A stretch of DNA of 64,000 bases, from NCBI GenBank assembly GCA_018831195.1, contig JAHJDP010000032.1, forward strand, positions 159,094 through 223,093, given 5' to 3'. A program made the position numbers and the translations under genes. Of the stretch, positions 22,670-61,427 are shown in pieces. The notes below the pieces were generated by a model, which saw only the letters and a list, made by a program, of their open reading frames with translations, did not search any database and was not told the origin of the DNA. Source of the stretch: Candidatus Eiseniibacteriota bacterium (GTDB lineage: Bacteria; Eisenbacteria; RBG-16-71-46; CAIMUX01; JAHJDP01). Positions within the stretch are counted from its first letter, which is position 1; each line of letters opens with the position of its first letter.

Positions 22670-22677
22670 CGTGTGGC

Positions 22678-24030: not shown

Positions 24031-24174
24031 GAAACCCCTTTCCAGCGGTTCGCTCGCGGCTGAAAATCCGCCCGGTGGATGACTTTTGAACTTTTCCCCA
24101 ACCCCAGAGTATAGAATGCGGGGCCGGAAGGGAACCGAGTCCTTGAACCCTCTAACCTTATCGCTGTTCCGGAG
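24031..24174. promoter_or_regulatory. divergent promoter region between lptF (minus strand) and the giant OMP gene (plus strand)
   Basis: 144-bp non-coding gap between divergent starts. Confidence 0.3.
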
Positions 24175-43650: not shown

Positions 43651-44562
43651 ATGATCCTTCGCGGCCCGGATAATTCTTTTCTCTCCGGTTTGTTCATCCG
43701 GGGATTTCTCCTGGCCCTTCTTATCATGCTGATGGCCCAACCCAGCGCCACCTCCGAAATCGATCCGCTGGAGAGCTCAATCGACTCTCCGGAAACATTT
43801 CTACCCGAATCCGAGATCGGGAACATCCGCATCCGTTCATTTGAAGATCGATATCTCAGGCAGGTACGTGAAGAAACGCCCCTGCGGGAGACCGCCCTCG
43901 TGTCGGGTGAAAAGCTGGTTTTCTCCGTGCGATTTGGTCCCTTGCGTGCGGGAGAAGCGACACTGGAATTCTCTGAAGCGCTCGATCAACGCAACCGGCC
44001 TGTTTATCGGATTCAAAGCCGCGCCCAATCGAATTCCTTTGTCAGTTCCTTTTACCGCGTCGATGACCATATTGAATCCCTCATCGATAGGGACTATCTC
44101 ACTCCGGTTCATTTCGAGAAGCACCTCAGGGAGGGAAAATACGAATCGGACCGGGTTGTCAAAATGGATCAGGACAACCATTTCGCGATCTATGAAGGGG
44201 GCGAAATCTATGAAATGCCCCCGCGCGCGCATGATGTTCTCAGCGCTTTCTACTATGTCCGGGCTATGAAAATGGCCGTCGGCGATACCCTTCGACTCAG
44301 CAGCCATTCCGATAAGAAAAATTATCCAATTGATGTTATTGTCCATCGCAAAGAGAAAGTGAAAGTGCCCGCAGGTGAATTTAATTGTTTTGTTATCGAA
44401 CCAAAGGTCTCATCCTCAGCTTTGTTCAACAGTAAGGGGAAATTGTGGATCTGGATCACTGACGATGAACGCCGGATCCCGGTCCTGATGAAGAGTGAGA
44501 TCCCCGTCGGATCGATCGATGCCGTTCTGACCCGGCTCGAAGGGAGACCGGATCGCAATTAA
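43651..44562 (+). CDS. hypothetical secreted protein, possibly DUF3108-like
   Basis: N-terminal signal or TM segment, and beta-rich content. No catalytic motif recognised; the family name is tentative. Confidence 0.4.
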   Translation: MILRGPDNSFLSGLFIRGFLLALLIMLMAQPSATSEIDPLESSIDSPETFLPESEIGNIRIRSFEDRYLRQVREETPLRETALVSGEKLVFSVRFGPLRAGEATLEFSEALDQRNRPVYRIQSRAQSNSFVSSFYRVDDHIESLIDRDYLTPVHFEKHLREGKYESDRVVKMDQDNHFAIYEGGEIYEMPPRAHDVLSAFYYVRAMKMAVGDTLRLSSHSDKKNYPIDVIVHRKEKVKVPAGEFNCFVIEPKVSSSALFNSKGKLWIWITDDERRIPVLMKSEIPVGSIDAVLTRLEGRPDRN

Positions 44563-44588
44563 TTGGGACCAAACAAGGATGTTGAATT

Positions 44589-45557
44589 ATGTCCCGATAC
44601 TCCGAAATTGATCTCAGCGGCATCCGCCGCCGATCCATCGAAGGGCACGCTCGGATTGTGGCCCAGGAAATGTCCAGCCATCCGCCGGTCGATCCCGACT
44701 CCTTTTCCCAATTCTGGGATGGTTTGCCTGATATCCTGGCCGCCCGTGACTTGAAACAATTGGCGAGCCGGCTTGTCGATGCGAGGTTGGAGGCCCGGCC
44801 TGTTTTGCTCTTCATGGGCGCCCATCTTATTAAAACGGGACTGACACCCCTCCTGGTCCGTCTCATGGACGAAGGTCTGCTGACCTCAATCGCCAGCCAT
44901 GGAGCCGGTCTGGTCCATGATCTGGAGTTGACTCTCTTCGGGCGGACTTCAGAGGATGTGGGCGAGGGTCTTGAGACGGGTGATTTCGGTATGGATCTGG
45001 AAACCTCATCCTTCATAAATAATTGGACCCGCGAGGCAGCGGCGGCCGGTGAGGGGTTGGGGGAGGGGTTGGGCCGCCGGATTCTGGAAGAGGCGGAACG
45101 ACGAGGTCTGGATCCCGATGCTGGGTGGCTCTCCGCGGCTTACAGACGGGGGATTCCAGCCACCATTCATGGATCGATTGGTACCGACATTTATCAGCAG
45201 CACCCGGAATTCAATGGCGCCTCCTTTGGTGAAACATCCACAAGGGATTTTCGGATCCTGGCGCATCAGGTTTCTCTGGCTGAGGGAGGTGTTATCCTGA
45301 ACTGGGGAAGCGCTGTCATCCTGCCAGAGGTCTTCCTGAAGGCGCTCTCCGTCGCCCGGAATCTCGGGCATCCTGTGACGGATCTGACCACGGCGGTCTT
45401 TGACTTTATGAAGCATTACCGCCCCGCGGAGAATGTTGTCCGGCGGCCGACGCAGGCTTCGGGCTGGGGAACCTATATCGTGGGGCATCATGAGATTATG
45501 ATCCCCCTATTCGTGCAAGGTCTCCTTCTTGAGCTGAAGCGACGCCAGGAGCGGTAA
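44589..45557 (+). CDS. deoxyhypusine-synthase-like (DHS-fold) protein of unknown function
   Basis: LLFMGAHLIKTGLTPLLVRLMDEGLLTSIASHGAGLVHDLE aligns with the DHS NAD-binding segment (LGYTSNLISSGIRE…VLVTTAGGVEEDL). IHGSIGTDIY resembles …ALTDGSLGDMIF, and ILNWGSAV resembles ILGGGVVK. The catalytic Lys of eukaryotic DHS is not conserved. Confidence 0.5.
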   Translation: MSRYSEIDLSGIRRRSIEGHARIVAQEMSSHPPVDPDSFSQFWDGLPDILAARDLKQLASRLVDARLEARPVLLFMGAHLIKTGLTPLLVRLMDEGLLTSIASHGAGLVHDLELTLFGRTSEDVGEGLETGDFGMDLETSSFINNWTREAAAAGEGLGEGLGRRILEEAERRGLDPDAGWLSAAYRRGIPATIHGSIGTDIYQQHPEFNGASFGETSTRDFRILAHQVSLAEGGVILNWGSAVILPEVFLKALSVARNLGHPVTDLTTAVFDFMKHYRPAENVVRRPTQASGWGTYIVGHHEIMIPLFVQGLLLELKRRQER

Positions 45558-45726: not shown

Positions 45727-46530
45727 ATGAGGGGCGCGATGCCGTGGCATGACCTGTTTGGCTCAGGGCGCTTTCCGTCGGCGCAATGGATGTTGGGTCT
45801 TCTCGTCATCCTGATCCCAATTTTAACAAGTTGTGGTGGCGGAACAGACATCCCGCCGCCGGGGTTGAATGTTCAGATTCCGGATGAGGGATCTGGTGCA
45901 CCGCCTTCATATTTCAGTGACTATGTTCTTCAGGCGGATGATGAGATCACTGTCAGAGTCCTGGCCAACCCTGAAATGAATGCAACGGTACCGATCCGTC
46001 CTGATGGAACGGTATCGATTCCCGGCGCTGGAGTGATCAATGCGGGGGGTATGACCCCGTCCCAATTGGCCGATGTCATTGAGACCCGTCTTGGACAGCT
46101 CATCCGCCAACCGCAGGTGGATGTTCTCGTAACGGAGTTACGACCGCGGGGGATCTATGTGATGGGTGAAGTTGAGGCGCCGGGAGAGAGGGTTTATCGG
46201 CCGGGGATGTCCGTTCTGCAGGCCTTGGGCGCCGCAGGCGGCGCCTTGAGAAGCGGCAAGCTTTCGAGTGTTCTGCTGATGCGCCGGGTGGGTCCTGAAG
46301 ATGTCGAAGTCCGGCGGGTTGATATCGAAGCCATCTTCGAACGCACGGAAGGGGCCGTCGATCCACTGTTGGCGCCGAACGATATCGTGTTTGTCCCAAA
46401 GACCTGGATCTCCCGCTGGGGGCAATTCGTCGACGAGTATATAAGACCGACGATTCAACCATTTGCGCTCTATGTTCAAGCCTGGTGGGCTATGAATCTA
46501 ACGAGCGACAGCGTCAACGTGACATTCTAA
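45727..46530 (+). CDS. polysaccharide export lipoprotein (Wza/GumB/EpsE-like; Poly_export plus SLBB domain)
   Basis: Lipobox (ILTSCGG). DYVLQADDEITVRV…PDGTVSIPGAGVINAGGMTPSQLADVIETRL…IYVMGEV is typical of the polysaccharide export N-terminal domain. Confidence 0.75.
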   Translation: MRGAMPWHDLFGSGRFPSAQWMLGLLVILIPILTSCGGGTDIPPPGLNVQIPDEGSGAPPSYFSDYVLQADDEITVRVLANPEMNATVPIRPDGTVSIPGAGVINAGGMTPSQLADVIETRLGQLIRQPQVDVLVTELRPRGIYVMGEVEAPGERVYRPGMSVLQALGAAGGALRSGKLSSVLLMRRVGPEDVEVRRVDIEAIFERTEGAVDPLLAPNDIVFVPKTWISRWGQFVDEYIRPTIQPFALYVQAWWAMNLTSDSVNVTF

Positions 46531-46576
46531 CAGTCTGGGGCGAACAAGATGAAGCCTATGGGATGAGGACAGCTTC

Positions 46577-47998
46577 GTGACACCACAGCAACTGGAACAT
46601 GAGAGCGAAACTAACGGCTACGATGAACCGCCCGAACCTGTAGAACGCCGGCGGACCTCGATGCGTGATTTCATCTCGGTGATTTTCCGCCGGAAGGGAA
46701 TCGTTATCGTCATTATAGTGATCGCCATTATCGCTGTATTGATTCTGAACGCCACATCACCCACGACTTTCCAATCGCATTCATCCCTGCTTGTCAGCCG
46801 CGGACATCCACAGTCGGTCTTTTCCACCGGTTACCAGATTCTTTCGTGGGAAGAAGAGTTGAATTCAGAAGTGGAAATTATAAAGAGCCAGCAAATTCAC
46901 CAATTGGCTCAGGACTATATTGAGGATTGGGGATTACGAAAAAACAACGGTGAGCCAATAAAGATCGATCCCCTCCAGATCCGTGCGACCACACCCGGCA
47001 AGAGCAGCGTTATTAATATCGCCTATAGATCGCATGCCCAGGAAGAAACGCAGCATGTCGCGCAGGCCCTGGCACAGGCCTATATTGATTTTAGGCATCA
47101 GACCCGCGGGGGACCGGAGGTTGAATCCTATTTCCAGCAGCAGCTCGAACAATTAGAGGATCGCCTCGGTGACTGGGAACAACGCCGGGCCGATTATATG
47201 ACCGAAGAAGCGGTGACGTCTCCCAAAGACGAGAGGTATTTCCTTCTCCAGGAACGTAGAGACGCCCAGGCCGAATTGGCTCGGATTCAGTCAAACATTA
47301 CGGAACGGCAGGCCCAGATTGAATCGATACGCCGGCTCCAGGAGGAGCGGCGGAATCAACCTGATCTGCAGATTATGCCTTTCTCGAATCCTACGACCAA
47401 CGAAGAATCGATCCTGGATATGCTCATGAAGGAGCTGACACTCCGCCGGAGTGAATATTATTCATCTGCCGCACGCTATACGGAAAACCATCCGGATGTT
47501 CAAAATAAGCGGCGGCATGTCCTTGAACTCGAGTCAGCTCTAGACAGGGAGCTTAATAATTATCTGCGGCATCTCGAGGCGCGAATCGAGGTCATGCTCG
47601 CCCAAGAGGCGAATCAAACTCAGGTTCTTGAAGCCTTGTCGGCGGAGTTGGCCGAGATTCCATCGAAGGAGATGCGTTTGGGGCAGATTGATCGCGTACT
47701 CGCTGCGATGACGACGCAATACAATGCCCTTGTACAAAGTAGTGTTGATGCAAGAATCAAGAAGACAGGATCAGCCGATTGGAACGTCATTCTTCTCACG
47801 CCGGCTTCTGAATCGATTCCGATCCTCGTGACCGACTATGTCCGTCTGGCGATTCTCCCGCTTTTTAGTATTATCCTTGGAATCGGGATGGCTTTCCTCG
47901 TGGACGGGCTGGATCACTCGATTAAGGATGCGGGAGACGTGGAGGCCTATATCGGTCTTCCCGTGCTTGCATCGGTGAGCCCGTTCGGGGGCCGGTAA
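46577..47998 (+). CDS. polysaccharide copolymerase / chain-length determinant (Wzz/GumC-like, no kinase domain)
   Basis: An N-terminal TM helix (IVIVIIVIAIIAVLIL) and a C-terminal TM helix (LAILPLFSIILGIGMAFLV) flank a long coiled-coil periplasmic domain. GTG start. Confidence 0.7.
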   Translation: MTPQQLEHESETNGYDEPPEPVERRRTSMRDFISVIFRRKGIVIVIIVIAIIAVLILNATSPTTFQSHSSLLVSRGHPQSVFSTGYQILSWEEELNSEVEIIKSQQIHQLAQDYIEDWGLRKNNGEPIKIDPLQIRATTPGKSSVINIAYRSHAQEETQHVAQALAQAYIDFRHQTRGGPEVESYFQQQLEQLEDRLGDWEQRRADYMTEEAVTSPKDERYFLLQERRDAQAELARIQSNITERQAQIESIRRLQEERRNQPDLQIMPFSNPTTNEESILDMLMKELTLRRSEYYSSAARYTENHPDVQNKRRHVLELESALDRELNNYLRHLEARIEVMLAQEANQTQVLEALSAELAEIPSKEMRLGQIDRVLAAMTTQYNALVQSSVDARIKKTGSADWNVILLTPASESIPILVTDYVRLAILPLFSIILGIGMAFLVDGLDHSIKDAGDVEAYIGLPVLASVSPFGGR

Positions 47999-48001
47999 AC
48001 C

Positions 48002-48868
48002 GTGGCCGTCTATGAAACATTCTACGGGTTGACGGAAAACCCATTTAACATTACTCCAGATCCCCGCTTTCTGTTTTTGACTCCTTCGCACCGCGCCGCG
48101 TTGAACTACCTTGAGTACGGTGTTGAGGAGCGCAAGGGATTTCTTGTTGTTACGGGAGAGGTCGGTGTGGGCAAAACCCTGCTGATCAGGACACTGCTTC
48201 AACGGGTTGATTCCCGAACCGAAACCGCCTTGGTTATGAATGCCCGCTTAACATTTAAGGAGCTCATGATCCTCGCTGTCCGTGATTGGAATCTCCCTGT
48301 GCAGGGACAGACAAAATTGGATTTATTGATCGCCCTTCAAGAATATCTCGTCGATGTGAAAAATCACGGCGGGAATGTTCTGTTGATCATTGATGAGGCG
48401 CAAAACCTATCGGCCGAGTCTTTGGAGGAATTCCGGCTGCTCAGCAATATGGAAACGAGCACGCAGAAACTGCTGCAGATTGTTCTGGCAGGGCAGCCTG
48501 AATTGAAAGTGATCTTGAACCAGCACGGCCTTCGGCAGCTGCGTCAAAGAATCCCGGGAATCTGTGATATTAAAAGTCTCGACCCGGATGATGTCGGTGA
48601 TTATGTGAGGCATCGGCAGAGTGTCGCGGGTCTATGTGCGCCCAATGATTGGATTTTTGACGAAGCTGCCATCGACGAGATCTATCGCAACACCGAGGGT
48701 ATCCCGCGATCGATCAATCAATTATGCGATCGTGCCCTCCTCTTGGGATATCAACGGAACATGAAGGTTTTGGGATCCCGGGAAATTATCGACGCGATGG
48801 ATGCCTTGAAGTCCGGGGATGTTCATTGGACTCCCGCGCGGCGGGGCGGCAAAGGGTTCATCGAATGA
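48002..48868 (+). CDS. ExeA/GspA-like AAA ATPase (PEP-CTERM-locus 'secretion ATPase' type)
   Basis: Walker A GEVGVGKTLL and Walker B/DEAQ box LLIIDEAQNL, with ExeA-like overall similarity. GTG start overlaps the upstream stop. Confidence 0.7.
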   Translation: MAVYETFYGLTENPFNITPDPRFLFLTPSHRAALNYLEYGVEERKGFLVVTGEVGVGKTLLIRTLLQRVDSRTETALVMNARLTFKELMILAVRDWNLPVQGQTKLDLLIALQEYLVDVKNHGGNVLLIIDEAQNLSAESLEEFRLLSNMETSTQKLLQIVLAGQPELKVILNQHGLRQLRQRIPGICDIKSLDPDDVGDYVRHRQSVAGLCAPNDWIFDEAAIDEIYRNTEGIPRSINQLCDRALLLGYQRNMKVLGSREIIDAMDALKSGDVHWTPARRGGKGFIE

Positions 48869-49602
48869 GCCGGATCCATGACAGTCTCACAGGACCAAGA
48901 TCAGGTGATCCCAGGGGTCCGGGTCCCTTTCAAACAATCCATACGATTGAAACCGGAATGGACAAGGTTCCGGATTTTCGCCTGCTGCATGAAATGGAGC
49001 AGCTTCAGGCGGCCCTTGGTGTCGCGATGGCGCCAGAAAGCAGGCGCGTTCTCGCCTTTCTGGGCGCTGTTGTCGGTGAAGGTGTTACGACCCTGGCTCT
49101 TCACTACTCGCTCTATCTGGCCCGATCGGCCGATCACAATGTTCTGCTGGTCGACTCCGATCTCGCTCACTCCAGCTATAGTCTGAGCGACGGCGTAGGC
49201 AAAAACCCGGGTCTTGCAGATATACTTCGTGGGGAGGTGGAACCCGGCAACGCCGTTTTGGGAACAGAAGAACCGAAGCTGCACTTTCTTTGTTCAGGCA
49301 ATGATATTGCAGGGCATACCGATCTTTTGAATTCACCTCGTTTTGGAATGCTGATGGCGGATCTTGGACGACGTTATCATACCGTTGTTCTCGACGGTCC
49401 ACCGGTGCTCGCCCATCCTGAATCGACGATCATTGGAGCAGCCGTAGATGGAGTCATTTTTGTCATCCAGCACCGGCGCACACGGAGAGAAGTTATACAA
49501 AAGGCGATCCATACCTTGAGGGGGGCGAAGTGCCAGCTCCTTGGCACGGTTCTCAACAGAAGAGTGCACGATATCCCCAACTTCATCTATCAGAGGATTT
49601 AA
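48865..49602 (+). CDS. BY-kinase (CapB/Wzc C-terminal domain)-like protein with a degenerate Walker A, a candidate pseudokinase
   Basis: FLGAVVGEGVTTLALHYSLYLA…LLVDSDLA…VVLDGPPV aligns with BY-kinase Walker A, A' and B motifs. However the invariant P-loop Lys is replaced by Val (GEGVTT, codon GTT), and there is no C-terminal Tyr cluster. ATGA overlap with the ATPase gene. Confidence 0.65.
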   Translation: MSRIHDSLTGPRSGDPRGPGPFQTIHTIETGMDKVPDFRLLHEMEQLQAALGVAMAPESRRVLAFLGAVVGEGVTTLALHYSLYLARSADHNVLLVDSDLAHSSYSLSDGVGKNPGLADILRGEVEPGNAVLGTEEPKLHFLCSGNDIAGHTDLLNSPRFGMLMADLGRRYHTVVLDGPPVLAHPESTIIGAAVDGVIFVIQHRRTRREVIQKAIHTLRGAKCQLLGTVLNRRVHDIPNFIYQRI

Positions 49603-49608
49603 CCCTCC

Positions 49609-50868
49609 GTGGCCGGAAGGATGAAGGACACAATGAACCGGCCAGATCACTTTGAACTGCCCGCCGTTCCCTTTGCGCAGCATCCGGAATTCGAAAGGGC
49701 CCTTCGGCGGCTAATGGAATGGACGATCCCGGCCCTCCTGAAGAGGAGTTCCGAAGTCCTGCCACAAGCGCTCTTCCTTTCCGGCACGGCCGCCTGGGGT
49801 GAGATGTCGGGCGTGCCGTGTTCCAACGGCCTATGGCTCCCTCTTTCCGATATCGATCTCTCCCTGGTCGTGAAACACCGGACCCCTGAATTGAAGGGTA
49901 TTCTCGAACACGATCTGCAACAGAACTTCAGAGAGAGGGGAAGGGCCACGGGCCTTAGCGCCTCTCCCGTCACTATTGGCACCTACGATATAAAAAAGCT
50001 TCGCCTTCAAGCCCCGACACTTGGCGTTGCGGAGATGCGACGGGCCGGGTGCTGTCTCTGGGGCGATGCTAAGCTCCTGTACCGCTTCCCCGACCCTGAA
50101 AGGGATGGACTGCGCCGCTGGGAGATCATCCGCCTGCTTTTTAACCGTTCTATGGAATTGGTGGAAGCCTGTGCCGCCGCGGATAAGGCCGCGGCGACAG
50201 GCGACGAGGAAGCGGCCTGGAAGCGTGGGTATCTGACCGCGAAGATGAGTTCTGATCTCGGAACCATTTTATTGGCCATGGAGGGGCGTTTGCTCTGGGG
50301 GATGGCGAACCGGCTATCTGTTTTGGATGACTGGGTTTCAGAAGGTCTGCTGCCGAAGGCGCTTGGTGATTTTCTAAAAGAATCGGTGCGATGTCGGCAA
50401 GATCCAACCTCCCTGCAACCGGAGAGAAAGACATCCTGGGATAGATTGGAACCCCTTGCGGACATGCTGGGCTGGTTGCATTGGACCTGGGATCGGATTT
50501 TGGATAAGTATAATCTGACAGAGCGCCCCTTCCCGCATACGGTCCTCCGGTGGGAGGAAGGCGGTCTTAGGGATCGCTTCCGGCAATTGCGCCAAATTCT
50601 GACGACTCCCCAGGAAAGGGGAAAGCTTCGCAGCTTGGCGAACTGGTGGGGAATGCGTCCGGCGGCTTGCTTCCGAAGCTCTTTGGGCTCGACTTGTCTC
50701 ATGTATCTTCTCCTACTGGACCCGGGGAGGGAGCAGTGGAGCCTCTCCGCCCGCGAGCACCTGGGCGGGCTTTCCCCCTGGGTGGACGGAAGAAGTAGAG
50801 AGGCGCCGCGTTCCGCGCTTCAAGAGCTGGGGCGATGGATAGTCTGGATGCGGGGGATTGAAGGTTAA
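49609..50868 (+). CDS. hypothetical protein with a minimal nucleotidyltransferase-fold signature
   Basis: LSGTAAWGEMSG…LSDIDLSLVV fits the h[GS]x(n)DhDh pattern of Pol-beta-type nucleotidyltransferases. Trp-rich C-terminal half. The start is uncertain: GTG at 49609, or ATG at 49621 or 49633. Confidence 0.4.
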   Translation: MAGRMKDTMNRPDHFELPAVPFAQHPEFERALRRLMEWTIPALLKRSSEVLPQALFLSGTAAWGEMSGVPCSNGLWLPLSDIDLSLVVKHRTPELKGILEHDLQQNFRERGRATGLSASPVTIGTYDIKKLRLQAPTLGVAEMRRAGCCLWGDAKLLYRFPDPERDGLRRWEIIRLLFNRSMELVEACAAADKAAATGDEEAAWKRGYLTAKMSSDLGTILLAMEGRLLWGMANRLSVLDDWVSEGLLPKALGDFLKESVRCRQDPTSLQPERKTSWDRLEPLADMLGWLHWTWDRILDKYNLTERPFPHTVLRWEEGGLRDRFRQLRQILTTPQERGKLRSLANWWGMRPAACFRSSLGSTCLMYLLLLDPGREQWSLSAREHLGGLSPWVDGRSREAPRSALQELGRWIVWMRGIEG

Positions 50869-50890
50869 ACAATATGAGCGAGGAGCGAGT

Positions 50891-52045
50891 GTGAAGGGAG
50901 AACGACTGGTTCTGATTATCCTGATCGACGCATTGGGATATCGGATCGTTAAAGAAACAAAGTTCCTCGATGGATTTGTGAAACCTGCGAATCCCATCCG
51001 GACCATTTTCGGCTATTCAAGCGCGGCGATCCCCAGCCTGTTGACCGGCGCCCTCCCGGAAGCCCACGGCCACTTTTCCATGTATCTCCGTGACCCGGAA
51101 AACTCCCCGTTGAAAAAAGACCGGTGGATAATCCGCCTTTTCGGCGAATGGATGAAGAGACCCTGGTTCCTCAAAAAAAGACTGACGCCGCGCCTGATCC
51201 GTCGGGGGATTACCGGTTATTTCAGTCTCTACGAAATTCCCTCCGAACTTCTGTCGGAATGGGATCTCTGCCAGAAGCGTTCGCTGTTCAAGCCGGGCGG
51301 CATTCCCGGATTTCCAACCGTCATTGATGAATTGGCCGAACGCCGCACGCCACACAGGATTTGGGATTGGAGCGTGCCTGAAGAGCGGGCATTGCCGGAG
51401 CTGCGCCGCGAGGTTTCCCAGGGAAAACTGCCATTCCTCTTTTTCTATACGCCGGGATTGGACAGTATTATGCACATGTATGGGACGCGGACTGAAGTTG
51501 TACAAAAAGCGCTTCGGAATTGGGATACAACGATTCGTGAACTCGTTGCGGAGGGGGAGAAGCATTACCGCGAAGTTCGTCTCTTTGTGTTCGGCGATCA
51601 CGGGATGGCGGATGTAGCTGACGCCCATGATTTGTGGGCTCGATTGCCGGTGATCGGGCCGCCAAAGAAACGGGGGACGCTCTACTTCCTCGATTCCACC
51701 ATGGCTCGGTTTTGGTTTGACTCTGATGCCGAGAGACGGCGGACGGTGGAAATCCTTTCAGAAGAAGGGTTCGGGCGCTGCCTATCCATCGAGGAGGAAA
51801 AGTCTCTGGGGGTTCATTTTCCCGACGGCCGGTATGGGGAGTTGACCTATTTGGCCGATGCGGGGCAACTCATCGTGCCCAGTTTCATGGGCTGGGAGAA
51901 GATCGCGGGAATGCACGGGTATCATCCGGATGATGTCGATTCGGATACGACCCTGCTGACGAATACAAATGTGGACCATCCGGCGGATATTCGGGGATTT
52001 TCCGACCTGTTGAAGAGAGAGGCGCTGGCCTTCTCAAGGGGATAG
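50891..52045 (+). CDS. alkaline-phosphatase-superfamily protein (type I phosphodiesterase / nucleotide pyrophosphatase-like)
   Basis: LVLIILIDALGY…SSAAIPSLLTGALPEAHGH…VFGDHGM are core metal-ligand motifs of the AlkP superfamily. GTG at 50891 follows GAGGAG. No TM segment. Confidence 0.65.
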   Translation: MKGERLVLIILIDALGYRIVKETKFLDGFVKPANPIRTIFGYSSAAIPSLLTGALPEAHGHFSMYLRDPENSPLKKDRWIIRLFGEWMKRPWFLKKRLTPRLIRRGITGYFSLYEIPSELLSEWDLCQKRSLFKPGGIPGFPTVIDELAERRTPHRIWDWSVPEERALPELRREVSQGKLPFLFFYTPGLDSIMHMYGTRTEVVQKALRNWDTTIRELVAEGEKHYREVRLFVFGDHGMADVADAHDLWARLPVIGPPKKRGTLYFLDSTMARFWFDSDAERRRTVEILSEEGFGRCLSIEEEKSLGVHFPDGRYGELTYLADAGQLIVPSFMGWEKIAGMHGYHPDDVDSDTTLLTNTNVDHPADIRGFSDLLKREALAFSRG

Positions 52046-52050
52046 GATTG

Positions 52051-53064
52051 ATGAAACGGAAACTCCTCTTCGGATCTATATTAAGCCTTCTCTTTCTATA
52101 TTTGGCCTTCCGCAAATCGGACTTTGCCCAGATCATTGAGCATATCCGAAACACGCGCATGATCTATCTCCTCCCGGGAGTCATCCTGACACTTCTCAGT
52201 TATTTTGTTCGAGCCGTCAGGTGGCGTTATCTCCTGGCTTCGGTGAAAACCATTTCATTAAGTCCTCTCTTTAAATCCACCATGATCGGTTTCATGGCCA
52301 ACAACCTCCTTCCGGCGCGACTGGGGGAGCTGGTGAGGGCGCATACCATCGGGACATGGGAGGGCATCTCCCGATCTTCGGCCCTGGCGACCATCGCCAT
52401 GGAACGTGTCTTTGATCTCTATACCATGTTGGTGCTTTTCGGCGTGATATCGATCTTTCTCCCATTGACGCCGGCGGTCCAGAAATTGGGCATGATCGGC
52501 CTGCTCTTCGGCCTCCTTGTTCTGGGTCTCTTTATCCTGCTGCTGCGCGCCGGTCCCAAGACGATCCAGCTTTTTGGCCGGTATATCCCCTCCCGATTCA
52601 GGGAACGCGGAATCGGTCTTCTCTGTGCTTTTCAGGAGGGTCTAGGAGTCCTCAAAAAGGGACGACAATTACTATGGGCCTCCATGTTATCGGTGCTGAT
52701 GTGGGGGTTCATCGTCGGTGTCATCTATCTTTGTTTCACGGCAACCGAGATAGAGGTTGATGGGAAACCCTTGCCGGTATCAGCGGCGGTGGTCGTCCTG
52801 GTTGTCATGGCGATCGGACTAATGGTGCCCTCGGGCCCTGGATTTATCGGATCTCTTCAGCTAGCAGCGAAACTCGGTCTCAGGGTTTTTGGAGTGGAGG
52901 ACAATATGGCGCTATCCTTCGCCATCGTCTATCACGCCACTCAATGGGTTCCGGTCACTTTGGTCGGGCTGATATTTCTCATCCATGCGAATCTCTCGCT
53001 CAAAGAGATCAGCCGGACATCGACCGGTGATAAGGGTCGCGATCCGACGGGGGCCGGGTTATGA
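52051..53064 (+). CDS. UPF0104 / lysylphosphatidylglycerol-synthase-TM-region family membrane protein (flippase-like)
   Basis: Multi-TM protein with RAVRWRYLL…MIGFMANNLLPARLGELVRAH, typical of the UPF0104 family. Confidence 0.6.
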   Translation: MKRKLLFGSILSLLFLYLAFRKSDFAQIIEHIRNTRMIYLLPGVILTLLSYFVRAVRWRYLLASVKTISLSPLFKSTMIGFMANNLLPARLGELVRAHTIGTWEGISRSSALATIAMERVFDLYTMLVLFGVISIFLPLTPAVQKLGMIGLLFGLLVLGLFILLLRAGPKTIQLFGRYIPSRFRERGIGLLCAFQEGLGVLKKGRQLLWASMLSVLMWGFIVGVIYLCFTATEIEVDGKPLPVSAAVVVLVVMAIGLMVPSGPGFIGSLQLAAKLGLRVFGVEDNMALSFAIVYHATQWVPVTLVGLIFLIHANLSLKEISRTSTGDKGRDPTGAGL

Positions 53065-54554
53065 ACCGGCTCGCACGCCCGGCTCCATTCCGACAGCGCG
53101 TGAGGAGGTTATTCTTTCCACCCGGCCCGCCCCAGCGGTTTCAAGAGCTTATTATTTCGCGCGGCGTGGTCATTCTCGCGGCCGCGGTCGTCGGGTTGAT
53201 TCTCGGTATCCAATGGTTTCAAGTTAATCCCCGTATTGTCAAAACACTTATCGGATTAATAGTCTTCTTTGTTTTTGTACGTTTCCCCGTCTATATGGGT
53301 GTCGGCGCTTTCCTATTGCTATATCCATATCCTACCGCTATCGCGTTGGGAAATACGAACTTTGTATTTGCTATTCTCTTTACCATGGTTTGGATTGTAA
53401 AAGTTGGTTTGGGATTGGAGCCGCGACCGCAGGGATCCCTTGTCGGCAAACCCATCTTTTTTCTTTTGGTGGCGCATGCCCTGTCGCTGATCGTGCTGCC
53501 TGAGTGGATGGATTTCAAAGAGACCTTTGCGTTTCAACAATTCCTGCTGGCCGCCGTGCTGATGTACACGGTGATGACGAATACCGTTACGACGCCGAAG
53601 CGTCTTCACTATATATTTCACATGCTTACTATCGGATCGATTATTGTTAATGTGCAATCGGTTCTTCAGTTTATTGCGCCGACCCTCCGGATTATCCCCG
53701 AATGGTATTATTCCTCCCCGGCTTTGGGCGCGGCGGTGGAGTTCGGAGGGCGTGTCGGTGGTGTTTTTCGTTCGCATCCTCTTCTGGCGGACTCGGCGGC
53801 GATGATGATCCTGCTGCAGCTCTTTATGGCCAGCCGCTGCGCCGGCAAACCATGGCAGCGTCTGTACCATTTTGGCGTCATCGGCCTGGCCATCATCACC
53901 CTTTTCATCACGGTGAACCGCGGAGGAATGGTCATTCTTGTGCTGGGATTGGCTATCATCGGATGGCACCTGCGCCGGGAACTGAAGTTCTCGCGGATCG
54001 CCATTGCCGCATCGGCGCTGGTGCTTGTCTTTATCATTGCGGAAGCGGTGACCAGCGGCCGGTATGAGCAGGAAGTCACCATGTTTTCCCGTCTTGCCGG
54101 CACCCGCTTTGAGTCGTTAATGCCTGAAAACAGAGCCGTCGTCTGGATCGCCTACTGGGCCTGGATTCTCGAATCTCCGTTTATCGGACATGGGCCCCGG
54201 ATCGATACCACCGTCCTTGGATTCTGGCCTCACAACGCCTATCTCTTTTATGCCTACACGGTCGGTTTCCTGGGAATGTCCATATTTCTTTTTATCATTC
54301 TGAAGAGCATTATAAAAACTCGACCCCGGGGCAGGGTCTCATGGACCAGGGGGTCATATGTCAAAGGAGCTTTACTCCTGGTTCATGTGATGCTTATCCA
54401 ATTTGCCGTCGGTCAGCTCCGAACCGACCACCAGCGAGGAAATGTTTTTATCTACTTGACCTACAGTCTGTTAGCGCAGGCCTCGATTGTCTATCGTCTT
54501 TCTGAAAAGGAAGACAAGCGTCGGCGCTCATTGACACGTAACCGCCAGGTATGA
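53061..54554 (+). CDS. O-antigen ligase / Wzy-type polymerase family membrane protein
   Basis: About 12 TM helices. The Wzy_C-like motif FIGHGP…HNAYLFYAYTVGFLG matches H-N-x-Y-L…G-x-x-G. ATGA overlap with the upstream gene. Confidence 0.65.
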   Translation: MNRLARPAPFRQRVRRLFFPPGPPQRFQELIISRGVVILAAAVVGLILGIQWFQVNPRIVKTLIGLIVFFVFVRFPVYMGVGAFLLLYPYPTAIALGNTNFVFAILFTMVWIVKVGLGLEPRPQGSLVGKPIFFLLVAHALSLIVLPEWMDFKETFAFQQFLLAAVLMYTVMTNTVTTPKRLHYIFHMLTIGSIIVNVQSVLQFIAPTLRIIPEWYYSSPALGAAVEFGGRVGGVFRSHPLLADSAAMMILLQLFMASRCAGKPWQRLYHFGVIGLAIITLFITVNRGGMVILVLGLAIIGWHLRRELKFSRIAIAASALVLVFIIAEAVTSGRYEQEVTMFSRLAGTRFESLMPENRAVVWIAYWAWILESPFIGHGPRIDTTVLGFWPHNAYLFYAYTVGFLGMSIFLFIILKSIIKTRPRGRVSWTRGSYVKGALLLVHVMLIQFAVGQLRTDHQRGNVFIYLTYSLLAQASIVYRLSEKEDKRRRSLTRNRQV

Positions 54555-54572
54555 TATGATTTTAGACGGATC

Positions 54573-54603
54573 GATAGACGCCGATAGATAGACATAGATA
54601 GCT
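54573..54603 (+). repeat. short degenerate GATAGA/GATA microsatellite-like tract
   Basis: gatagacgccgatagatagacatagatagc contains five or more GATAG/ATAGA units. It lies in the 432-bp intergenic region. Confidence 0.5.
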
Positions 54604-54641
54604 GGACAAGGAGGTATGGACGCGACTCGTTGCTAATGAGG

Positions 54642-54672
54642 GATCCTCCGCTTCGAGCGGAGATCTTTATGG
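54642..54672 (+). terminator. candidate terminator hairpin downstream of the Wzy-like gene
   Basis: GATCCTCCGC-ttcga-GCGGAGATC is a near-perfect inverted repeat, followed by TTTATGG. Confidence 0.3.
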
Positions 54673-54986
54673 ATGAAGTATGGAAGTGACCGGGGCGTTG
54701 AAAACGAACGACCCCTGGACGGGTAGGAACAGCAACGAGCCCTCATGTGGCGGCACGTCCGGTTCGCCTGGGGGATACATCAAGGGTTTACCCTGTGGAC
54801 AAGATGACTCCGGCGGAAACGGGCATGGAAAATATCTCTACGGAGAGGGCTTCCCGACCTCCCCGAATAAAGTCCTCGAAGAACGGAACAGCACGCCCCG
54901 CGAAGAAGGTTCCGCGGGATGCATTGTCTGTTCCCTGTTCTATTCCCAAACCACGCCGGGCGAAATCGTGGCATCGCCGCTGTTAT

Positions 54987-55583
54987 ATGGCATTCGGCAA
55001 ACGCCTCTTTGATCTCGTCATTACTATACCCGCCATTATCATCCTCCTTCCCCTCTTTCTTGTTCTCGCCATTCTCATCCGGGTCGATACGCCGGGCCCT
55101 GTGATCTACACAAGCCGCAGGGTTGGAGAGGGAGGAAGGATCTTCAACTTCTTCAAGTTTCGCTCAATGGTTGTCGGCGCGGAAGGTTATCGAGATCGAC
55201 TTCAAGAGCTCAATGAGGTGGATGGCCCCGTTTTCAAGATCGCCAATGATCCCCGCACGACCCGTTTCGGCCGCTTTCTCAGGCGCACCAGCTTAGATGA
55301 GCTGCCCCAGATGTTCAATGTCCTGCTGGGCGATATGACCCTCGTAGGCCCGCGTCCACCTATTCCGGATGAAGTTGTTCAGTATTTGCCCTGGCAGCGG
55401 GCCCGGCTCAGTGTCAGGCCGGGTATAACCTGTCTCTGGCAAATCAGTGGAAGGAGCCAATTGGGTTTTGATGAGTGGATGCGTCTGGATCTGAAGTATG
55501 TAGAAGGGATCAGCCTCGGGTTGGATATAAAGATCCTTCTCCAAACCATACCAGCCGTTCTCTCGAGAGAAGGCGCCTACTGA
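54987..55583 (+). CDS. polyprenyl-phosphate sugar phosphotransferase (bacterial sugar transferase, WbaP/EpsL C-terminal domain type)
   Basis: MAFGKRLFDLVITIPAIIILLPLF…RVGEGGRIFNFFKFRSM…DELPQMFNVLLGDMTLVGPRP are family-defining motifs. I chose the ATG at 54987; the upstream ORF extension has no homology. Confidence 0.85.
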   Translation: MAFGKRLFDLVITIPAIIILLPLFLVLAILIRVDTPGPVIYTSRRVGEGGRIFNFFKFRSMVVGAEGYRDRLQELNEVDGPVFKIANDPRTTRFGRFLRRTSLDELPQMFNVLLGDMTLVGPRPPIPDEVVQYLPWQRARLSVRPGITCLWQISGRSQLGFDEWMRLDLKYVEGISLGLDIKILLQTIPAVLSREGAY

Positions 55584-55678
55584 TTTTCGAGGTGGTTTGG
55601 ACGGATTGGAGAAGCGAATTTGTATATCACGGCAATAATCGCGGCAACGAAGTGAGCCATCAGGGGGAGTCACGTATT

Positions 55679-57232
55679 GTGAGGCGCGGGAAGATTGCTC
55701 ATTCGAACCGGGTATGGGCATGGGCACTCCTACTTTTAATGGCTCTGGGTCTCCGGGTGGCGGGTCTTGGAAGACAATCCCTATGGATCGATGAAGCCTA
55801 CTCTGTGAAGTATGCGCATCTGGGTGGATCGCTGACCTGGGATGACTATTTGGATAACCTGCATGGGCCCCTGCATACCATACTCTTGCACAATTGGTGC
55901 ACTATCGCCGGGGATGGAGAGGCCGCGTTGAGGTGGCCGAGTGTCATGGCCTCAGTTCTAACACTGCCGTTCTTCTGGCGCCTGACACGCCGCCTCATAG
56001 GAGCTAGGGGGGCCTGGGCCGCAACGGCGGCCATAGCGGTTTCTCCCTTTTCCATCTGGTATGCGCAGGAAGTGCGCAATTACAGCCTCTTTCTTCTGAT
56101 GGCCTGTGTTGCCTTGTTGGCATGGTTTCGATCTCTGGATGGGCCGGGGCATATCGGGCGGTGGATTCTGCATGTCCTCCTTCTCTTCGGTGCCTTTCTT
56201 TCCAATCTAGCCAGTCTCTTTATTATCCCGGTGCAACTCATTTGGTTGATTGGACGCCGCCGTTCACACTGGGTGAGCACGCTCTCAGCTTGGGCCGCCG
56301 TGATGCTGCTACTGCTTCCTTGGGAGATTCGTTTCTATAATTACCGGGTTGTCCCCTCCGGCTTGTTGGACAAAACAAAGACGGTCGAGTTGGCCCCGGC
56401 GCGGGAAGAAACATGGGCGAGTTCCTGGAGTATCCCTTTTACCTATTATGCTTTTGCCGGCGGTTATACATTAGGCCCTCCGCTTGAAGAACTGCATGAA
56501 GACCGGATCGGCGCCCTCAAGCATCATATGCCGCTGTTGATAGCGGCCGCCCTTCTTTTTGCGGGCCTTATCGGATGGGGGGTTGTCGGCCGCCGTGAAC
56601 CGAATCGCAAGCAGCGACTTCGCCTCTTAGCCTGGTTGCTCATACCTCCGCTGGGTGTTTGGCTTATTTCTCTTCTCAATCTGAAAGCGATGAATCCTCG
56701 CTACGCTCTGGTCGCCTATCCGGCATTTCTTGTTCTTCTCGCCGCCGGTTGGATAAGCATGAAGCGAAGAGGTGTGCGGATCGCTGCCGCGATCGCAGTG
56801 CTGGCGATCTGGGGATTGTGCTGGGGACGAGTTCAGTGGGATGAAGCCTATGCGAAAGAGGATTACCGTTCCATTTCCGGTTGGATGAGGGAACAGCTTG
56901 ATGCGGAAGTATTATGGATCACCATTGGTGTCGATGACCCGCTGCGGATCTATTACCTTCGTGATTGTTTTAACGGGATGGATTTGAAGGTTGGAACATA
57001 CCGCCGCCTGACATCGTATCCGCCTTCACATTGGGAACGGTTTTGGAATGAGACGGAAGAACTCGCTTCGGAACATCGAAGAATTCTACTCTTTGAATCG
57101 CGGACATGGCACCTTGATCCCGATGGCCGGGGTCCCGGATTGCTAAGAAAATATTGTTCAAATCCGGAGACCATCAACCGCCACGGCATCCGTGTCTTGA
57201 AATGTGAAAGAGGGGAGAACACCGATGACTAG
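55679..57232 (+). CDS. GT-C-fold glycosyltransferase family 39-like (ArnT/PMT-like) membrane protein
   Basis: GTG at 55679 is 9 nt after GGGGGAG. N-terminal multi-TM region with LWIDEAYSVKYA… (the DE motif in the first periplasmic loop), then a large C-terminal soluble domain. Confidence 0.6.
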   Translation: MRRGKIAHSNRVWAWALLLLMALGLRVAGLGRQSLWIDEAYSVKYAHLGGSLTWDDYLDNLHGPLHTILLHNWCTIAGDGEAALRWPSVMASVLTLPFFWRLTRRLIGARGAWAATAAIAVSPFSIWYAQEVRNYSLFLLMACVALLAWFRSLDGPGHIGRWILHVLLLFGAFLSNLASLFIIPVQLIWLIGRRRSHWVSTLSAWAAVMLLLLPWEIRFYNYRVVPSGLLDKTKTVELAPAREETWASSWSIPFTYYAFAGGYTLGPPLEELHEDRIGALKHHMPLLIAAALLFAGLIGWGVVGRREPNRKQRLRLLAWLLIPPLGVWLISLLNLKAMNPRYALVAYPAFLVLLAAGWISMKRRGVRIAAAIAVLAIWGLCWGRVQWDEAYAKEDYRSISGWMREQLDAEVLWITIGVDDPLRIYYLRDCFNGMDLKVGTYRRLTSYPPSHWERFWNETEELASEHRRILLFESRTWHLDPDGRGPGLLRKYCSNPETINRHGIRVLKCERGENTDD

Positions 57233-58367
57233 AGGCCGGGTCGTTCTCTTCTCCAATGCCCCCTATTTTGGCGGGGCCGAAGGGTATTTGGTCTATCTGG
57301 CGCAGGGTTTAAAACCTCTTGGGTGGGACCCGATCGGTCTGGTTCCCGAGGGATCGTGTGGAGCGGTGCTTGCGGGCCGCTTTGAAAAGGCCGGCTTTCC
57401 CGTCGAAAAATTCAATCACCGGCACTGGACATCTCCGGCCGGCGCCTGCGACATCCTCAAAAAGTTAAAGCAGATCGATGGCGAGATATTGCATCTTAAT
57501 CTTCCCTCGCCCTATGAGGCGCTGCGGAATACCGTCGCCTTTTGGGGGCGGCTGGCGGGTTATCGACGCGTTGTCGCAACAGAACACCTTCCGATGTCTT
57601 TGCGGGCCCGGAGGCGGGCCTTGCTCAAAATCCTGCTGGCTCCAGCCATTGATGCCTTTATTATTATGACGCGATCGGGCGCGGAAGATTTGCATCGGAT
57701 TCATGGTATCGGTCAGGATAAAATTGTACGCATTCCATATGGGATTGATCCGGCGCCGGAGGTTGCTCCGGCCGGCCGCCGCGACCTGCTTGAAGGATTG
57801 AAACTTCCACCGGAAACGCGCCTTGTCGGCCATGTCGGCCGTCTTACCGCGCGGAAGGGGCACCGCATTCTGCTGGAGGCGCTGGCACAAGAGAAAGAGA
57901 TGCTTCGGGATCGCCGGACCGCTGTTCTATTCATCGGTGAGGGAGAAGAAGAAGAAAATCTGCGGCGATGCTCCGAGACACTCGTGCTGAATGAGTTTGT
58001 ACATTTTATGGGCCATCGCGAGAATGCCCGGAATCTTATCGGTTTGCTGGATCTTCTCGTGCTACCCTCCTTTGTTGAAACACAGCCCTTTGTCATCCTC
58101 GAGGCCATGGCCGCCGGAATTCCGGTTCTCTCGACGATGGTCTATGGGATTCCCGATATGGTTGTCCACGAGGTCACGGGGCTTCTGGTCGAGCCGGGAG
58201 CGATCGGCCCGCTCGGGGCCGCGCTCAAGCGCCTTCTCCTCGAGGATGAGACCCGAATCAAGATGGGGCGATCCGGTTTGGAACGATTCAATGAGCTTTT
58301 TCGGATGGATAGGATGGCGGAGAAGACGGAGAGGGTCTATGCCGCCCAAAATGGGGTTGGGCTTTGA
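57225..58367 (+). CDS. GT4-family glycosyltransferase
   Basis: GT-B fold with the C-terminal EX7E-type motif region (…FVETQPFVILEAMAAGIPVL…). The ATG at 57225 follows a GGGGAG Shine-Dalgarno and overlaps the upstream stop by 8 nt. Confidence 0.8.
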   Translation: MTRGRVVLFSNAPYFGGAEGYLVYLAQGLKPLGWDPIGLVPEGSCGAVLAGRFEKAGFPVEKFNHRHWTSPAGACDILKKLKQIDGEILHLNLPSPYEALRNTVAFWGRLAGYRRVVATEHLPMSLRARRRALLKILLAPAIDAFIIMTRSGAEDLHRIHGIGQDKIVRIPYGIDPAPEVAPAGRRDLLEGLKLPPETRLVGHVGRLTARKGHRILLEALAQEKEMLRDRRTAVLFIGEGEEEENLRRCSETLVLNEFVHFMGHRENARNLIGLLDLLVLPSFVETQPFVILEAMAAGIPVLSTMVYGIPDMVVHEVTGLLVEPGAIGPLGAALKRLLLEDETRIKMGRSGLERFNELFRMDRMAEKTERVYAAQNGVGL

Positions 58368-60879: not shown

Positions 60880-60907
60880 CATCCCGCAAGAGACAAGGCC
60901 GCCCCAC

Positions 60908-61171
60908 TTATTTCGGAAGGGGTTTTAACCTCTCCACCTGCTGAATTGTCAAAAATACATCACAAACCGCGCAGTTCATCAGTTTTACAGCGAACGATCC
61001 TTCCACGATACCGCCGCTGAGGGTTCCCGCAATGTCCCAGCAATGCCGCGAACGATCTCCCTTGTCTGAAGAAGGCTCCCATGCGGCCGCGGCAGCGGGG
61101 CAAACACCCAAATCGTCGACCTGAAAACCGCCGGGCTCCCGGCCGCATTTTTTCAACTCCCAACAATTCAT
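60908..61171 (-). CDS. small Cys-rich protein with two CW motifs (two-CW-domain-like)
   Basis: 87 aa read from the ATG at 61171 (preceded by AGGGGAG): MNCWELKKCGREPGG…GVCPAA…RHCWDIAGTLSGGIVEGSFAVKLMNCAVCDVF. Seven Cys, two C-W dipeptides, and a CGREPGG motif. It is the only minus-strand gene inside a 40-kb plus-strand block. Confidence 0.5.
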   Translation of the reverse strand: MNCWELKKCGREPGGFQVDDLGVCPAAAAAWEPSSDKGDRSRHCWDIAGTLSGGIVEGSFAVKLMNCAVCDVFLTIQQVERLKPLPK

Positions 61172-61427
61172 CGTCTCCCCTGTCTTCTTCCCGGTTCTGC
61201 GGCGCCATGCCATCTTGAAATCCAGGGATCTTCTTCGGCATCAAGTGTCTATGGGGGTGGTCGGCATATAGTGCTTCGACCTTGATCCCAATTCAATCCT
61301 CTCTTTTGATCGCAGGGGGGTGGCGGGTGGAAGGGGTCGGCTTCCTGGCACCTATCCTTTTCAGTGACTTGAGGTTTGGGGTTTTGTATTCTGAGACCGG
61401 TTTCAACGTGCTGAGGGAGGAAAACCC
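61172..61427. promoter_or_regulatory. divergent intergenic region between the two-CW ORF and manC
   Basis: 256-bp non-coding gap between divergent starts. A strong GAGGGAGG Shine-Dalgarno precedes the manC GTG. Confidence 0.3.

Follow-up and report, generated by a model that had tools for sequence, protein, structure and literature searches.

A conserved BY-kinase-fold protein lacking the P-loop lysine, and its AAA+ ATPase neighbour, in an exopolysaccharide export locus of Candidatus Eisenbacteria

Cycling of a bacterial tyrosine (BY) kinase is the textbook control of Wzy-dependent capsule and exopolysaccharide (EPS) export. Recently, EcpK and HfsB have shown that phosphorylation can be dispensable, and BY pseudokinases that partner a class 2 polysaccharide co-polymerase (PCP-2) are by now published in several systems, namely EcpK and HfsB (PMC12004946) and GumC (PMC9800525). 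EcpK and HfsB were proposed to act as scaffolds of PCP-2 proteins, and the cytoplasmic tails of the co-polymerases CapA, HfsA and EpsV bind their kinase or pseudokinase partners (PMC12004946). Separately, the AAA+ ATPase PrmE was found to be required for a Wzy-type EPS in the promonan cluster of Sphingomonas sp. LM7, where it was noted as new to polysaccharide assembly and where the published order is prmE-prmF-prmG (PMC11340318). Here, we describe a locus in which a BY-kinase-fold protein without the P-loop lysine is encoded directly after an ExeA-like AAA+ ATPase, on a 64-kb stretch of a Candidatus Eisenbacteria metagenome-assembled genome (the window, to which all statements on absent genes refer). 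The locus is part of a far larger natural collection of apparently dead kinases, a family in which the residues of the chemistry alone appear to have been lost while the nucleotide pocket was retained. Our reading, which we hold to be probable though well short of certain, is that the window encodes the export core of a Wzx/Wzy-type EPS pathway with a two-part, phosphorylation-independent PCP-2 and a conserved accessory AAA+ switch ATPase.

The export core lies on the + strand and comprises, in order, a Wza-like lipoprotein, a Wzz-like co-polymerase, an ExeA-like AAA+ ATPase and a BY-kinase-fold protein (Table 1), which are the four families and the gene order assigned in an earlier note on this DNA. 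The same note had pointed to an ATGA overlap of the last two genes, and it is indeed present at 48865..48868 (+), where the pseudokinase start ATG 48865 overlaps the ATPase stop TGA (48866-48868), with the two genes in different reading frames. This start was preferred because the homologues all begin MS[RQN]I.D.L. An ATG at 48724, giving a longer open reading frame (ORF), was rejected since the N-termini of the homologues fit 48865, and the start used at NCBI (Met31 at 48955; MDKVPDF..., P0001, 214 aa) was likewise rejected, as it removes the family-wide N-terminal motif MSRI.D.L.

The kinase-like protein matches TIGR03018 (5.5e-29, 101 bits against a cut-off of 230.65) and TIGR01007 (6.8e-21, 74.7 bits against 108.05), and a phmmer search of the Protein Data Bank (PDB) returned VpsO first (5.5e-21), followed by BceF, CapB, Wzc and Etk. 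In the alignment to the solved VpsO kinase domain, V74 of the degenerate motif GEGVTT falls exactly on the Walker A lysine. An AlphaFold2 (AF2) model of the protein, with a mean predicted local distance difference test (pLDDT) score of 85.1, was compared with the PDB by Foldseek, and the top 50 matches were all BY-kinase domains (VpsO, CapB, Wzc, BceF, Etk) at E values of 5e-14 to 2e-10 and template-modelling scores of about 0.7. Of the features by which a BY-kinase is recognized, the protein thus has the catalytic-domain fold and the Walker B hhhhDxPP, and it is without the Walker A lysine, the Walker A' arginine, the EX2RX2R motif, which is the oligomerisation motif of BY-kinases (PMC9800525), the tyrosine cluster (a single Tyr, Y242, in the final 30 residues) and a TIGR01007 score above cut-off. 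The earlier note's description of a lost P-loop lysine, of still recognisable Walker A' and B motifs (LLVDSDLAHS and VVLDGPP) and of a missing C-terminal tyrosine cluster therefore stands, and the Walker A' arginine has to be added to the losses. Because Walker A lysine, Walker A' arginine, EX2RX2R and tyrosine cluster are all missing, the 245-aa protein would be unable to work as a tyrosine autokinase, and the loss of kinase activity presumed in that note is likely. Nor does the window offer a substitute: the family hidden Markov model (HMM) matches only one ORF, so that no second BY-kinase-like ORF, canonical or otherwise, accompanies it in the 64 kb, a regular-expression scan of the window found no other kinase-type P-loop, and the two matches to low-molecular-weight protein tyrosine phosphatase (LMW-PTP) in the window are spurious short out-of-frame ORFs.

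The substitution is shared by the relatives of the window protein. At the lysine position, V, T or A stands in all six homologues aligned (55-64% identity). When a profile of lysine-less members was run against 1.84 billion representatives of 50%-identity clusters and the best 150 matches were kept, the lysine was missing in 140 of the 148 representatives with the position aligned. These 140 hold T (60), A (47), V (12), C (8), S (8) and others at that position, while the residues around the nucleotide are kept: G73 and S/T75 are both 100% conserved, the first Walker A' Asp, D97, is found in 96% and the Walker B Asp, D177, in 99% (139/140). In 72% of them Asn has taken the place of the second Walker A' Asp, the first arginine of EX2RX2R is uncommon at its position (at most 7%), and 24% keep the Glu of that motif. 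Tyr242, in the motif IP.FIYRR[IL], is present in 133 of the 140 (95%). A rough neighbour-joining distance tree separates one clade of 157 proteins, 154 of them lysine-less, from another of 76, of which 73 contain the lysine, with a minimum of five changes of lysine state. Judged from these alignments and this tree, the lysine-less proteins are best regarded as an old, essentially monophyletic family with selective loss of the catalytic lysine. The family spans at least 140 clusters at 50% identity, with members in Eisenbacteria, Bacteroidota and Krumholzibacteriia and more distant lysine-less relatives in Planctomycetota. Its few named members are from Eisenbacteria and Bacteroidota and every one of them is labelled a tyrosine kinase; the databases mis-annotate the family as kinases. 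A practical yield of this work is thus an annotation correction, along with testable constructs, and the mechanism discussed below is offered as a proposal.

A few relatives that retain the Walker A lysine, among them P0282, P0232 and L013 (from bacterium AUK263, gene at 1210-2070), carry the C-terminal motif of the family with more tyrosines in it, in versions such as YHIPSYIYRYI (P0282) and YYIPEFIYKRV. L013, P0232 and P0282 resemble intermediates, and they suggest that the IP.FIYRR tail may be a relic of a tyrosine cluster.

How much of this is new has to be stated with care. That a BY pseudokinase can work with a PCP-2, that the ATPase family occurs in loci for EPS export and that an ATPase of this kind is genetically required are all already published (EcpK and HfsB, PMC12004946; GumC, PMC9800525; PrmE, PMC11340318), and the locus cannot be called an undescribed variant of Wzc-type control, as had been suggested at first. 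What does appear to be undescribed in the literature searched is the size and coherence of the lysine-less family, its selective pattern of residue loss and its conserved terminal motifs.

The ATPase, in turn, has every sign of being intact. It matches AAA_22 at 3.3e-26 and TIGR03015 at 2e-84 (283.2 bits against a cut-off of 324.5), and over 30 homologues its mean column identity is 70%, with several invariant arginines besides the Walker motifs, which makes it far better conserved than the pseudokinase. It consists of the AAA+ core and lid only, without a transmembrane (TM) or peptidoglycan-binding extension. No solved structure is related to it by sequence at E<0.01, and a profile search gave marginal P-loop matches only; its AF2 model (pLDDT 88.7) finds its best fold matches in ORC/Cdc6, MuB and TnsC. 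AAA+ proteins of the ORC/Cdc6, MuB and TnsC type are ATP-dependent assembly switches and not unfoldases. In the literature searched no paper was found that names TIGR03015, and the 2006 paper on PEP-CTERM mentions neither an ATPase nor a tyrosine kinase.

Two surveys bear on whether the ATPase belongs to the dead kinase in particular. In the first, GTDB species genomes were scanned with an ATPase alignment, which gave at least 80 loci in a sample shaped by the search pattern; a BY-kinase-like gene lay directly 3' of the ATPase in 64 of the 80 loci listed. In 59 of these 64, mostly from Acidobacteriota, the kinase was canonical, with xEGK[ST], D/E.DLRRP and, in most, a Tyr-rich tail, and a lysine-less protein followed the ATPase in the other 5, exclusively in loci of the Eisenbacteria or Krumholzibacteriia type. 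The close spacing is likewise general: 65 of the 68 ATPase-kinase junctions listed fall within -17 to +87 nt, 27 junctions overlap, across both canonical and lysine-less kinds, and the -4 junction recurs in 18 of the 68 tandem junctions listed, canonical-kinase loci included. The Wzz-ATPase-kinase block as such is conserved in Acidobacteriota, Eisenbacteria, Krumholzibacteriia and Bacteroidota-like contigs. The second survey started from the lysine-less proteins, in metagenome loci with at least 1 kb upstream (n=24), with a search pattern biased to the ATPase-free subfamily; here the ATPase was upstream in 3 of the 24 and Wzz directly upstream in the remaining 21. Among loci of the Eisenbacteria type, which share the order rpsO-pnp-...-DUF3108-unknown-Wza-Wzz-[ATPase]-pseudokinase, the window, L003 and L004 have the ATPase and the 4-nt overlap, L001/L002, L005 and L158 have no ATPase, and the kinase-fold protein is lysine-less in both groups. 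The ATPase is likewise absent between Wzz and the lysine-less gene in L006 and L007 (Planctomycetota and other contigs), and a Bacteroidota-like contig, L156, has Wzz, ATPase and a lysine-less protein in a row, the last two with a 2-nt gap. All four combinations of ATPase presence or absence and kinase lysine state are thus found. Given the 59 of 64 tandems with a canonical kinase and the 21 of 24 lysine-less loci without the ATPase, the ATPase is neither specific to the dead kinase nor required by it. We infer that the partnership with the ATPase is probably older than the lysine loss, and since the ATPase-free loci of the Eisenbacteria type are otherwise syntenic, their arrangement suggests that the ATPase was later lost in one lysine-less lineage.

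Some observations on these loci may be recorded on their own account. Just 5' of the Wzz-ATPase-lysine-less block of L156 (2928-6152) lies a gene for a sigma-54 activator (752-2167); sigma-54 control has been reported for PEP-CTERM/EPS loci. Kinases 3' of the ATPase in Acidobacteriaceae end in lysine-rich repeats (e.g. KKEAKKQAKKEA...AASA), a tail type unusual for BY-kinases, which is seen in L024, L028-L032, L036, L041, L042, L047, L051, L053, L059 and L065 and comes, where visible, after a short tyrosine cluster (e.g. L031, L032). The Sulfotelmatobacter-like contig L058 has two BY-kinase genes (2963-3919 and 6732-7691), a canonical stand-alone gene 2 kb upstream and the other directly after the ATPase.

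The reading favoured here, a phosphorylation-independent two-part PCP-2 with an accessory switch ATPase, can be envisioned as follows. The four genes would form the core that assembles and exports the exopolysaccharide in a Wzx/Wzy-type pathway, in which the C-terminal tail of the Wzz-like protein would dock onto the kinase-fold protein, as may be expected by analogy to the tails of CapA, HfsA and EpsV; loci that have the ATPase and loci that do not share the conserved tail motif DGLD.[ST][IV][KR]....E..L..PVL. The kinase-fold protein would then scaffold or organise the co-polymerase without phosphorylation, as proposed for EcpK and HfsB, and would perhaps still bind Mg-nucleotide. Retention of such binding is plausible because the Mg- and nucleotide-binding residues (P-loop glycines, S/T75, D97, D177) were selectively kept, and also because Wzc with the K540M change can still close and oligomerise when Mg-nucleotide is present (PMC9800525), PDB titles listing K540M MgADP entries. 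The ORC/MuB/TnsC-type ATPase, finally, would be an accessory subunit throughout this lineage of export modules, already there before the kinase lost its activity, whose ATP cycle might assist an assembly step on the complex of co-polymerase and kinase-fold protein whatever the state of the kinase, probably in a stoichiometric role.

Several points weigh against this proposal. With EX2RX2R gone, a Wzc-like octameric ring is not assured. The P-loop remnant and the single C-terminal Tyr seem to be conserved beyond what a pure scaffold needs, and such conservation could mean a ligand-dependent or even an enzymatic activity. The pseudokinases on which the analogy leans, EcpK and HfsB, probably belong to a different family, judged from their description as proteins without any Walker motif. 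Moreover, the genome beyond the 64-kb window could still encode a canonical kinase, a phosphatase or an exosortase.

An alternative, which builds on the earlier note, is that the ExeA-like ATPase took the place of autophosphorylation, so that ATP hydrolysis drives or regulates the assembly and disassembly of a dead kinase scaffold. It has attractive features: the 4-nt overlap is conserved in the window, L003, L004, L009, L011 and L012, and only 2 nt part the genes in L156; the ATPase motifs are invariant; the fold is of the ORC, MuB and TnsC switch type; and PrmE is required for EPS (PMC11340318). In addition, a lysine-less Wzc of E. coli gives no EPS and is expected to be locked in its oligomeric state (PMC9800525), so that some other disassembly factor would be useful. 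However, the tandem and its overlaps are equally present where the kinase keeps xEGK[ST], DxDLRRP and a Tyr-rich tail, as in the 59 GTDB loci above, and the lysine-less gene follows Wzz directly in L001, L002, L005, L158, L006 and L007 besides the 21 metagenome loci. The ATPase-free loci of the Eisenbacteria type, otherwise syntenic with the window, suggest, if the direction of change is as we read it, that the ATPase is dispensable after the lysine loss. We therefore consider this replacement unlikely. More doubtful again is a broader version, in which it is chiefly the ORC/MuB-like AAA+ ATPase, driven by ATP, that times how the co-polymerase assembles and disassembles in the Wzz-ATPase-kinase lineage of export modules, and autophosphorylation is a dispensable add-on that was lost once, anciently, to give a large clade of Mg-nucleotide-binding, non-catalytic ring proteins. 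If that were true, nothing besides the ATPase would hydrolyse NTP within the export core of the window, and the sublineage without the ATPase would have moved to a fully passive scaffold.

We give very little credence to the idea that the protein is an enzyme after all, a 'with-no-lysine' BY-kinase or ATPase. In such an enzyme a different basic residue would stand in for the lysine, either its own or one contributed in trans from the Wzz tail or the ATPase, and Tyr242 would be the only site phosphorylated. The family-wide conservation of the P-loop glycines, S/T75, T76, D97, D177 and Tyr242 would suit such an enzyme, as would the lysine-containing relatives P0282 and P0232 with their shared C-terminal motif and additional tyrosines. 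On the other hand, the residue at the lysine position is unconstrained, with T, A, V, C, S, G, N and W all on record and differences even between close relatives, so that there is no conserved substitute; the second Walker A' Asp has mostly become Asn and the O-motif arginines that shape the active site are gone; and Walker A mutants of Wzc and ExoP are inactive (PMC9800525). Arg208 was considered as a relocated catalytic residue, being invariant in an alignment of 28 lysine-less sequences, and was dropped as VpsO has Arg208 too, hence no replacement specific to the family. That the missing lysine is a sequencing or assembly error, or the mark of a decaying pseudogene, can for practical purposes be dismissed, for although the source is a single MAG (metagenome-assembled genome) and its identical match P0001 stems from this assembly or a duplicate of it, GTT is three bases away from both AAA and AAG, the ORF is intact, the rest of the protein is under strong purifying selection, and independent homologues from many samples show the same loss, in 140 of 148 representatives.

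The surroundings of the core fit an EPS locus. The genes 5' of about 43.6 kb are housekeeping genes (fatty-acid synthesis, RNase III, EF-P, IF2, TruB, RibF, PNPase), and the polysaccharide locus on the + strand extends from 45.7 kb to at least 62.5 kb. The Wza-like outer-membrane polysaccharide export (OPX) protein matches PF02563 (3.1e-21) and SLBB_2 (2.1e-08), with TIGR03027 as its top NCBIfam match (8.9e-33, 113.4 bits against a cut-off of 180). It is of the short type, and no obvious porin was seen in the locus; short-type OPX proteins are reported to need a separate beta-barrel partner. The Wzz-like protein matches TIGR03017 (3e-27, 95.3 bits) and TIGR03007 (3e-24, 85.1 bits), both under cut-off, and Pfam Wzz at 23.9, slightly under the gathering score of 25.5. 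Downstream, the 419-aa gene has no Pfam or NCBIfam match even at E=5; by eye, a nucleotidyltransferase-like stretch, 'LPLSDIDLSLVV', can be made out in it. It is followed by genes for a phosphodiesterase-like protein, an LPG_synthase_TM flippase-like protein, a Wzy_C polymerase, a Bac_transf initiating phosphotransferase, a PMT_2 GT-C enzyme, three GT4 glycosyltransferases and a ManC-like nucleotidyltransferase, in that order. The locus in the window contains no MOP/Wzx-type flippase, and the LPG_synthase_TM membrane protein (TIGR00374; 52048-53064, +), which adjoins the polymerase, may be a stand-in for one; the related locus L001 does carry Polysacc_synt genes. Upstream, the DUF3108 and 322-aa proteins may be part of the export module; the latter has a weak ArgZ-like or deoxyhypusine-synthase-like Rossmann match. 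Further away, the window encodes a 2181-aa protein with an SprA_N domain, like the translocon of type IX secretion (24175-30720, +), adjoined by divergent LptF/LptG genes (21584-24192, -).

Table 1. Coordinates in the window of the export core, its motifs and the neighbouring genes
Feature	Position	Strand	Basis or remark
Secreted DUF3108 protein and 322-aa protein	43651..45557	+	directly 5' of Wza in nearly all Eisenbacteria-type loci reaching that far
Short Wza-like OPX lipoprotein, 267 aa	45727..46530	+	Poly_export and one SLBB domain; lipobox LTSC
Wzz-like co-polymerase (PCP-2b-like), 473 aa	46577..47998	+	two TM helices, no kinase domain (hydropathy scan)
Cytoplasmic C-terminal tail of co-polymerase (DGLDHSIKDAGDVEAYIGLPVLASVSPFGGR), ~30 residues	47909..47995	+	presumed pseudokinase docking segment
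ExeA/GspA-like AAA+ ATPase, 288 aa	48002..48868	+	AAA_22, TIGR03015
ATPase Walker A, GEVGVGKT	48155..48178	+	invariant in 30 homologues
ATPase Walker B, IIDEAQNL	48386..48409	+	D131, E132, A133, Q134 invariant in 30 homologues
BY-kinase-fold pseudokinase (probable), 245 aa	48865..49602	+	TIGR03018, TIGR01007, fold match
N-terminal motif, MSRIHDSL	48865..48888	+	seen in canonical as well as lysine-less relatives, and in the XrtA-associated kinase of D. vulgaris
EX2RX2R position, reads HEMEQLQ	48988..49008	+	all three key residues gone: H42/E45/Q48 (alignment)
Degenerate Walker A, GEGVTT	49075..49092	+	codons GGT GAA GGT GTT ACG ACC; GTT 49084-49086 replaces Lys
Walker A' remnant, VDSDLAHS	49150..49173	+	both Asp retained, Arg gone (Ala there)
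Walker B, VVLDGPP, intact	49384..49404	+	alignment; D177
Family-specific C-terminal motif, NRRVHDIPNFIYQRI	49555..49599	+	single conserved Tyr242
Conserved 419-aa gene directly 3' of pseudokinase	49609..50868	+	syntenic in Eisenbacteria-type loci with and without ATPase
Remainder of Wzy-type EPS locus	50858..62513	+	Pfam/NCBIfam scans

Placed beside the systems it resembles, the locus shares something with each. The likeness to ExeA/GspA of type II secretion is confined to the ATPase, which has the AAA_22 core, intact Walker A and B and a conserved N-terminal segment, and shares 41% identity with the AAA domain of a GspA from Ideonella, whose gene is next to that of GspB. However, that GspA has 548 aa, whereas the window ATPase ends after the AAA+ lid, without the TM and peptidoglycan-binding C-terminal half, and its gene stands in a polysaccharide locus, with no GspB, secretin or other type II context in the window.

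The relation to XrtA/PEP-CTERM loci is closer, since the same four protein families are best or near-best matches, the XrtA kinase also starts with an MSRI.EAL motif and the XrtA ATPase is 38-39% identical to that of the window. The earlier note went further and held that the module reproduces the PEP-CTERM export core, which our comparison does not bear out. All four window proteins score under the cut-offs of the XrtA models (TIGR03027 113.4/180, TIGR03007 85.1/278.85, TIGR03015 283.2/324.5, TIGR03018 101/230.65), as do the Acidobacteriota and other relatives of the ATPase. The genuine XrtA loci that we read, from D. vulgaris pDV1 and Sphingomonas parapaucimobilis (L159, L160), have the order Wza-Wzz-kinase-[OMP]-ATPase, OMP being an outer-membrane protein, with an ATPase of ~440 aa after the kinase, where the window has an ATPase of 288 aa followed by the pseudokinase. 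Their kinases keep the lysine, in GEGKT or DGKT, and Tyr-rich tails, both of which the window protein is without. Deacetylase and FemAB genes follow in both of these loci, and the Sphingomonas locus has exosortase A as well. None of the likely coding ORFs with 200 aa or more in the window encodes an exosortase, TIGR03016 porin, deacetylase, FemAB or amidotransferase, and a crude regular-expression scan of all window ORFs found none with PEP, TM segment and basic tail. The module is PEP-CTERM-like by resemblance only.

In the promonan cluster, PrmE, PrmF and PrmG offer the same set, for there too a cluster for Wzy-dependent EPS combines the gene of an AAA+ ATPase with those of Wzz and a CapB-like protein, in the different order ATPase-Wzz-kinase; PrmE is likened to the window ATPase here by its description. 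The order ATPase-Wzz-kinase is also that of Roseobacter litoralis pROLI127 (L161), with an ATPase 41% identical to the one in the window. Its CapB-like protein (L161 8435-9247) retains the lysine of Walker A but ends without a tyrosine cluster, and by these motifs it would be another partial departure from the canonical kinase.

The pairs EcpK-EpsV of Myxococcus xanthus and HfsB-HfsA of Caulobacter resemble the window in having a stand-alone BY-kinase fold without catalytic residues or a Tyr-rich tail, a partner PCP-2 without kinase domain and with a short cytoplasmic C-terminal tail, and a Wzx/Wzy-type pathway with an OPX protein, represented in the window by the Wza, Wzy_C and phosphoglycosyl transferase (PGT) genes. 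The difference lies in how much of the kinase is kept: EcpK has no recognisable Walker A, A' or B and misses several secondary-structure elements, whereas the window protein has a near-complete BY-kinase core and P-loop from which only selected catalytic residues are gone, together with its own conserved N- and C-terminal motifs. Moreover, in the window an AAA+ ATPase gene stands between the co-polymerase and pseudokinase genes.

The nearest match in gene order is with the uncharacterised Wzz-ATPase-BY-kinase blocks of Acidobacteriota, which have Wza, PCP, an ATPase of ~285-330 aa and a kinase-fold gene in the same sequence, with short or overlapping junctions, an N-terminal motif as in the window and a PGT gene close by. 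They differ in the kinase itself, which is canonical, with the Walker A Lys, DxDLRRP and Tyr clusters, and which in the case of L016 clears the TIGR01007 cut-off at 133.8 bits. Such sister loci with an active kinase, together with the loci with and without the AAA+ partner, amount to a ready comparative series, one that bears both on the role of the kinase fold beyond phosphorylation and on the purpose of the AAA+ ATPase in clusters of the PEP-CTERM and promonan types.

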